Positions 3,428 to 3,817 of a stretch of DNA of 37,407 nucleotides are shown here, piece after piece. How positions within the stretch are numbered: the first letter of the stretch is position 1; the number at the start of each line of letters is the position of its first letter. This stretch comes from Catajapyx aquilonaris. Lineage: Eukaryota. The stretch covers positions 1 through 37,407 of the forward strand of contig KZ539533.1 in assembly GCA_000934665.2 (NCBI GenBank), in the 5' to 3' direction. Under the pieces are notes generated by a model. The model did not search any database. It saw nothing but the letters and a program-made list of their open reading frames with translations, and was not told the origin of the DNA. The translations under genes were made by a program, and so were the position numbers.

Positions 3428-3578
3428 CATGTTGGAGAGTGTGACTTTTTCTTTAGGCACAACAAGAGCAATGTCGAAGGTTGCCTTGATGGCTGGCTCA
3501 TCCCAACACGGGAAGCACCTCCTGGCATCGGTGGCCTCGAACTGGGTCACCCCAGCAAATTTCTCCTCGCCTTGGAGG
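3428..3578 (-). CDS. Psa: Psa alternative exon B (canonical): [51 protein letters not shown]
   Basis: 151 nt; acceptor gcatcag, donor ATG|gtgagt; phase 2 to 0 fits both flanking exons; canonical TQFE..[10 protein letters not shown] motif. Confidence 0.95.
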
Positions 3579-3666
3579 CTGATGCAGGCGGGACAGAAAG
3601 ACAGAGGGAGAGGGGAGGGAGGGAGAAACCCGAGTAAGACAGATGAGTACAGATCCAAAAACTCAC

Positions 3667-3817
3667 CATGTTGGACAGAGCCAACAGGTCCTGGGGCACC
3701 ACTACTGATAGAGTGAATGCAGCCCTTAGCGCAGGCTCATCCCAGCATGGGAAAAAGCGACGGGCACTTGTGGGGCAAAGCTGCGTCACAGCACAGTGAC
3801 GAAGCTCACCATTGGTG
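3667..3817 (-). CDS. Psa: Psa alternative exon A (variant duplicate): [51 protein letters not shown]
   Basis: 151 nt, same length and phase as exon B, open frame; acceptor ttttgtag, donor ATG|gtgagt; aligns to exon B without gaps. Confidence 0.88.

Follow-up and report, generated by a model that had tools for sequence, protein, structure and literature searches.

The puromycin-sensitive aminopeptidase gene (Psa/NPEPPS) in a contig of Catajapyx aquilonaris appears to carry, in its 5' part, a tandem-duplicated pair of mutually exclusive exons, a reading of this arthropod gene to which a probability of about 0.75 is attached. The canonical member of the pair, exon B, encodes the residues TQFE, and the alternative member, exon A, keeps the Gln and has Leu-Cys in place of Phe-Glu (TQLC). 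The acidic anchor for the substrate N-terminus, equivalent to Glu180 of the human enzyme, is present in exon B and absent from exon A. Taken as a whole, the pair is judged to be real, ancient, well conserved and uncharacterised. It belongs to the known class of tandem-duplicated, mutually exclusive exons, and it stands out within that class in that the swap hits a residue that defines aminopeptidase recognition. The window referred to below is the whole stretch of DNA that was analysed, 37,407 nucleotides of contig KZ539533.1 (assembly GCA_000934665.2, positions 1 to 37,407).

The 5' part of Psa is read on the minus strand of the window, and the gene leaves the window after exon 4 (Table 1). 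Its domain order is that of an M1 peptidase: the Peptidase_M1_N domain (PF17900) is spread over exons 2, A and B, and the start of Peptidase_M1 (PF01433) follows on exon 4. The GAMEN and HEXXH-18-E zinc motifs would be encoded in the part of the gene beyond the window. A protein search with exon 4 returned insect and crustacean proteins named PSA at 73-80% identity, with no self match. Judged by these best matches, which favour PSA over APN, ERAP and other M1 peptidases, the gene is the orthologue of the arthropod puromycin-sensitive aminopeptidase.

Table 1. Psa features in the window, in order of transcription except for the candidate intron element in the last line.
Feature	Position	Strand	Length	Details
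Psa exon 1, coding part	5270..5398	-		ATG 5398..5396; 43 codons; ends in phase 0; donor GTATTG; in-frame join to exon 2
Psa exon 2	4865..5103	-	239 nt	ends with SKYT plus AG, phase 2 (two codon bases); donor GTGGGT; PF17900 positions 30-109
Exon A, alternative	3667..3817	-	151 nt	Leu-Cys codons 3780..3775, at the Phe-Glu position
A-B intron	3579..3666	-	88 nt	sequence-based reading
Exon B, canonical	3428..3578	-	151 nt	Phe-Glu codons 3541..3536
Psa exon 4	1855..2152	-	298 nt	PVKSESPD...ADFSSG; starts in phase 0 at 2152; PF01433 start; stops just short of the GAMEN motif
Purine-rich intron element, candidate	3347..3364	-		64-81 nt downstream of exon B; complementary to 3581..3598 (18 nt, 83%)

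A preliminary description of this DNA had reported two homologous exons 88 nt apart, each 151 nt long, open, in the same phase and bounded by AG and GTGAGT, and every structural detail agrees with the recomputed coordinates. Each exon follows an AG, runs into GTGAGT and has a single open frame. They are identical at 85 of 151 nucleotides and 26 of 50 amino acids. Different codons are used at 14 of the 26 conserved residues, bearing out the earlier remark that many synonymous positions differ, and the synonymous divergence between the two exons is saturated. Positions 111-159 of PF17900 are matched by both, exon A with 61 bits and exon B with 74 bits (cut-off 25.8), scores well above what chance would give. 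The reading frame is kept with exactly one of the two exons. In silico joins of exons 1, 2 and 4 through either A or B run without stops; inclusion of both exons leads to a stop at codon 200 and omission of both to a stop at codon 125, the early stops that fit the frame shift claimed for either event.

Compared with human PSA (NPEPPS; PDB 8sw0, 8sw1, 9o5k), exon B is near-identical over 48 aligned residues, whereas exon A has Leu-Cys at Phe179-Glu180. The exon B match reaches 78 bits (8sw0, 9o5k), as against 46 bits at most for APN. By this alignment exon B is the canonical PSA exon, and its Glu is human PSA Glu180. According to the paper on the structure of the human enzyme, the substrate N-terminus is bound by Glu180 and Glu319, and Gln178 lies in the S1 subsite (PMC10343166). 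In aminopeptidase A (Glu-215; PMC5587309) and in ERAP1 (Glu183; ERAP review PMC11284793), it is the corresponding Glu that touches the free amine of a bound ligand, in keeping with the roles that had been given for this Glu and the Gln before it. The exon B Glu and the Glu of the GAMEN motif together form an acidic pocket for the free alpha-amino group of the substrate. Alignment of exon B with APN places TQMQ at the anchor, and the Gln that had been ascribed to APN in place of Glu is indeed there. Since APN and LTA4H are active enzymes despite a Gln here, loss of the Glu need not abolish activity.

As APN (Gln) and the ectoenzyme that degrades TRH (TRH-DE) illustrate, the anchor position varies naturally within the M1 family, with different handling of the N-terminus. 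Those enzymes are encoded by separate genes, whereas A and B of Psa would be isoforms. One of the substitutions responsible for TRH-DE specificity presumably falls at this same anchor position. We know of no characterised M1 enzyme with Cys there. A review attributes TRH-DE specificity to two substitutions in the catalytic domain, the residues of which it leaves unnamed (PMC7225337).

The same Glu-less alternative block is found in the PSA isoforms of many insects and malacostracan crustaceans, which lends weight to the suggestion that exon A is an old duplicate under selection. Exon A alone was a poor query: it returned 47 candidates, all of them distant M1 proteins with FE, FQ or LA, and missed the orthologues because the isoforms, which differ at about 25 of 870 residues, collapse into one 90% cluster. 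The orthologue set was instead drawn from a search with exon 4, for which 120 representatives were listed, followed by inspection of the members of the 90% clusters. A motif regular expression matched 101 of the 120 listed representatives (99 FE and 2 LC), and BLAST of the 19 that it missed added three more LC types. One of these three, a model from Timema shepardi, has an LC-type copy and, immediately after it, one of the FE type, which is also the order of the exons in the window; that this gene model includes both copies is probably an error of the model. The Diaphorina model P0023 had a doubled exon 4 score, but no internal duplication was found in it.

Inside the 90% clusters, Glu-less and FE isoforms of the same species are annotated in 11 other genera, drawn from mayfly, locust, katydid, cockroach, termite, stick insect, leafhopper, shrimp, crabs and mantis shrimp. 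Zootermopsis, Anabrus, Periplaneta, Eriocheir and Portunus each have a Glu-less and an FE isoform of one gene. Schistocerca also has both, with LC in at least four species among the 15 of 27 members listed. The Glu-less motif, again accompanied by an FE isoform, reads TMLC in Bacillus rossius, TYLC in Neocloeon, TFLC in Macrosteles, SQLC in Penaeus vannamei and P. japonicus (P. monodon has LC only) and TQFF, with FF for LC, in Oratosquilla. The Oratosquilla exon (isoform X3, P0198) is the most divergent of the A type, with a tree end branch of 1.6; besides Phe-Phe for Leu-Cys it has AHR for ARR and ends in TNT for SNM.

When isoform pairs were aligned, all differences were confined to the block and the 2-6 residues immediately preceding it (12 of 12 pairs), which is the signature of exon substitution. 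The Glu-less isoforms of these relatives are automatic RefSeq predictions. The Glu-less block is also present in the spliced, cDNA-like contigs P0284, P0310 and P0255. Transcript-like Logan members all have FE, in the Penaeus cluster (8 of 8) as in the Portunus cluster (3 of 3), making exon A at best a minor form.

A profile of 11 A-type exons has A9, V10, L13, C14, A18, R19, R20, F22, P23, C24, D26, E27, P28, F34, L47, N49 and M50 as invariant residues, with the core ARR-FPC-DEP. Searching with this profile retrieved further LC fragments, including Timema bartmani and contigs from Logan, JGI and ENA. It also retrieved FC types in Hemiptera (Planococcus isoform X1, Cyamophila and one full-length Logan transcript-like protein) and FA types in the beetle Phaedon and two mites. 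What these sequences have in common across lineages is that the Glu is gone, replaced mostly by Cys and in a few cases by Ala or Phe. Among the annotated cluster members listed, which describe annotation and not genomes, a Glu-less form was not seen in Drosophila (15 of 51 members), Anopheles (14 with the region), Tribolium (2), Aethina (1), carideans (7), Homarus/Procambarus (4), Orchesella (2), Haliotis (4) or Saccostrea (3). An alternative Glu-less exon was likewise not seen in vertebrates or molluscs among the proteins retrieved.

Exon A could in principle be an unused relic (pseudo-exon) in C. aquilonaris, or only a 'poison' exon whose inclusion with B leads to NMD, so that the Leu-Cys protein is not made. 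Its acceptor pyrimidine tract is much weaker than that of exon B, joining both exons gives the stop at codon 200 described above, and by simple arithmetic a random frame of 50 codons is open about 9% of the time. A relic or poison exon is nevertheless very improbable. The frame of exon A is open, its AG and GTGAGT are intact and its Pfam match stands at 61 bits, despite saturated synonymous divergence from exon B; it keeps 17 of the 17 columns that are invariant among A-type exons; and annotations in 11 other genera treat the exon as coding. These sequence features suggest, with rather high confidence, that exon A is used in C. aquilonaris too, as a minor or tissue-restricted form.

The relationship among A exons was examined in a maximum-likelihood tree of 45 segments and 50 columns, a data set of little power. 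The window's exon A is nested in a 13-member clade of A exons of the insect type (86/69, 97/60) and not with its own exon B, which groups with other B exons and is nearest to Orchesella (88/86). The insect-plus-window clade persists without the Leu and Cys columns (71/86). Mean identity is 0.55 between A exons of different species, 0.56 between A and B within a species and 0.82 among B exons; by these comparisons A exons evolve fast, and faster than B. As A-A identity is no higher than A-B identity, the case for the orthology of exon A is made by the tree together with the Leu-Cys and the position that the A exons have in common. On these grounds the window's exon A appears, with moderate support, to be orthologous to hexapod A exons.

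The identical Leu-Cys is most simply accounted for by one origin in Pancrustacea. When all columns are used, a branch of the best tree sets the 18 LC rows apart on one side (75/81), and adding the Oratosquilla FF exon to them costs 1.1 lnL (p-AU 0.41). The Glu-less exon might instead have arisen more than once, through independent tandem duplications in hexapods and decapods that converged on Leu-Cys. Decapod A exons form a separate clade (98/96) within a polytomy, and AU tests on 48 columns, from which Leu and Cys were left out, reject no scenario: decapod A and B as one clade is only 4 lnL worse (p 0.44), all LC exons together 10.4 lnL worse (p 0.27) and the window's A and B as sisters 20 lnL worse (p 0.15). 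The FC variants of Hemiptera and the FA variant of Phaedon also favour several origins, which on balance seem rather unlikely given the branch that unites the LC rows and a Leu-Cys pair that is identical in its residues, positions, exon and gene, for which one event is the simplest explanation.

Mites offer a further point in favour of several origins, in that their Glu-less PSA has a history of its own. In Medioppia (P0216/P0217) and Halotydeus (P0260/P0319) the PSA paralogs are side-by-side genes, with a TQFA copy next to an FE copy; the normal copy reads TQFE in Halotydeus and THFE in Medioppia. Unlike the exon pair, the mite Glu-less form has Ala, not Cys, and the copies are whole-gene tandem duplicates, since their flanks differ too. 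In the tree the mite FA sequences pair with the FE sequences of their own species (Medioppia 100/96), and they therefore arose independently.

The A-B intron suggests how inclusion of exactly one exon might be enforced. Its adenosines lie only at positions 4, 13, 19, 23, 32, 84 and 87 from the exon A donor, and motif matching gives two branch-point-like YTNAY sites, at A23 (3644) and A32 (3635). A pyrimidine tract of 48 nt (3628..3581; at least 88% pyrimidines) directly precedes the AG of exon B. Because adenosines outside the last 5 nt occur only at position 32 or closer to the donor, the putative branch point of exon B would lie at most 32 nt from the A donor. As a general rule, a donor-to-branch-point distance of 32 nt or less would be too short for both intron ends to be engaged at once. 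Exclusion would then, at roughly even odds, be steric in the first place: the long tract would leave the branch point within 32 nt of the A donor, and the A-B intron would not be removable. The frameshift and early stop (NMD) would serve as back-up against transcripts with both exons or neither.

Distant branch points have been encountered in similar settings. Exons 2 and 3 of alpha-tropomyosin reportedly have this anatomy. For vertebrate OGDH exons 4a/4b, exclusion is described as acting through distant branch points near the 5' splice site together with a very long pyrimidine tract (PMC7969005). The likeness to Psa takes in homologous, adjacent exons of equal length, a short intron and a very long pyrimidine tract, and a swap that alters residues of a ligand-binding site (PMC7969005). 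Psa differs from OGDH and tropomyosin in gene and phylum and in the dimensions of the intron, which has 88 nt in all and its candidate adenosines 23 and 32 nt from the donor, and the Psa branch point is read from sequence alone.

Exon choice could also be influenced by a stem between the exon B pyrimidine tract and the downstream purine-rich element (Table 1), which could mask B and tip the choice to A. The stem 3581-3598/3347-3364 is present in both the MFE and the centroid folds and would loop out exon B. The fold that contains it is no better than those of shuffled sequences (z -1.23; 26 of 200 shuffles fold as well), and the stem is a candidate only as a selector favouring A.

A separate, perfect inverted repeat of 13 nt joins 3807-3819, comprising the acceptor AG and the first 11 bases of exon A, with 2629-2641, which lies in the intron separating exons B and 4. 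The repeat is nearly palindromic; by arithmetic, chance would give about 0.06 pairs of this kind in 2.8 kb.

To judge from sequence, two enzymes that differ in their handling of substrates are probably made from the gene. The N-terminal amine is held by two carboxylates, of which the Leu-Cys isoform would have lost one, and the S1/N-terminal pocket would be roomier and less charged, a prediction with an equal chance of proving right or wrong. Its classical aminopeptidase activity may be much weaker and/or its substrate range shifted, for instance towards N-terminally modified or uncharged ends; here, too, the balance is even.

The main rival holds that the Leu-Cys isoform is essentially non-catalytic, being either a form of PSA for scaffolding or binding or a partner by which the FE form is modulated. 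Such roles have precedents: in Drosophila, the suppression of A-beta toxicity by PSA does not depend on its proteolytic activity (PMC3898073), VRAC channels have PSA as an inhibitory auxiliary subunit (PMC12407707), and the yeast M1 homologue Tma108 binds nascent chains (PMC5062994). The faster evolution of A exons points in the same direction. Yet a single anchor residue is replaced, and the rest of the active-site strand (Q12 and others) is conserved in A exons; the zinc site is common to the B isoform because common exons encode it; and a purely structural role would leave the invariant Leu-Cys across lineages unexplained. A non-catalytic isoform is accordingly an unlikely reading, and an enzyme with an altered grip on its substrate is favoured, given a strand that is otherwise retained and a zinc site in common with the B isoform.

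The invariance of Cys in LC and FC types, where not just any small residue is found, and the extra Cys residues of decapod A exons raise the further idea of a redox or metal switch, in which a thiol in the N-terminal pocket would gate activity through oxidation or metal binding. Glu is replaced by Ala in Phaedon and the mite paralogs, however, and by Phe in Oratosquilla; loss of Glu, not gain of a thiol, is therefore the common theme, which makes the switch less likely. PSA is moreover cytosolic, and general M1 geometry suggests that the Cys side chain is too short to reach the zinc. A thiol switch thus ranks as distinctly improbable, below a non-catalytic isoform.

The altered-grip enzyme has a more far-reaching version, for which the odds are poor: one ancient exon might have given pancrustaceans a second PSA with a different entry rule, accepting blocked or uncharged N-termini or gated by a thiol. 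If that were true, Psa would have an isoform-level switch of exopeptidase specificity, which is not described for any M1 enzyme, with flies and beetles having lost or replaced the exon and mites imitating it through gene duplication.

PSA is the main cytosolic aminopeptidase and has been studied, much of it in Drosophila, for neuropeptide turnover, the clearance of polyglutamine and tau, and fertility. Non-dipteran insects and crustaceans, among them pests, farmed shrimp and crabs, could have a PSA activity that work in flies cannot reveal. A conserved isoform that lacks one of the two carboxylates behind the 'amino' in aminopeptidase would offer a natural test of the way in which M1 enzymes recognise the N-terminus of a substrate. 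The isoforms differ within 50 residues and are directly testable as two recombinant proteins. For splicing, the Psa pair would be a clean arthropod example, with a short intron and a long pyrimidine tract, in which to study the enforcement of mutual exclusion.

The preliminary description was aware of no account of this switch. With respect to the literature this stands: a full-text search, with subscription journals and supplements outside its reach, gave no description of alternative or duplicated exons in arthropod PSA. With respect to databases it does not, since Glu-less isoforms are already present there as the automatic RefSeq predictions mentioned above.

Other features of the window were noted in passing. 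A long open exon at 30287-30883 (+) encodes a JAB1/MPN metalloprotease domain (PF01398, E 1.1e-37); it looks like a gene of the COP9 signalosome subunit 5 type and is an unrelated neighbour about 25 kb upstream of Psa. The window is rich in simple repeats, with an (ATA)n microsatellite of about 31 copies at 7709-7799, a long CAT/CAC-type run at about 23.7-23.9 kb that reads as poly-His in one frame, and a run of N within about 28.2-28.5 kb that has (GA)n on its flanks (the window has 230 N in total). In the intron after Psa exon 4, a repeated element occurs in copies of opposite orientation at 255-730 and about 800-1510. The ORF translations 255..611 (+) and 608..730 (-) have HCIKSEGVLPKTDQLVAE / HRLKSEGVLPKMEQLVAE in common, and similar strings recur at 1067-1510; the element is probably a short interspersed or MITE-like repeat.
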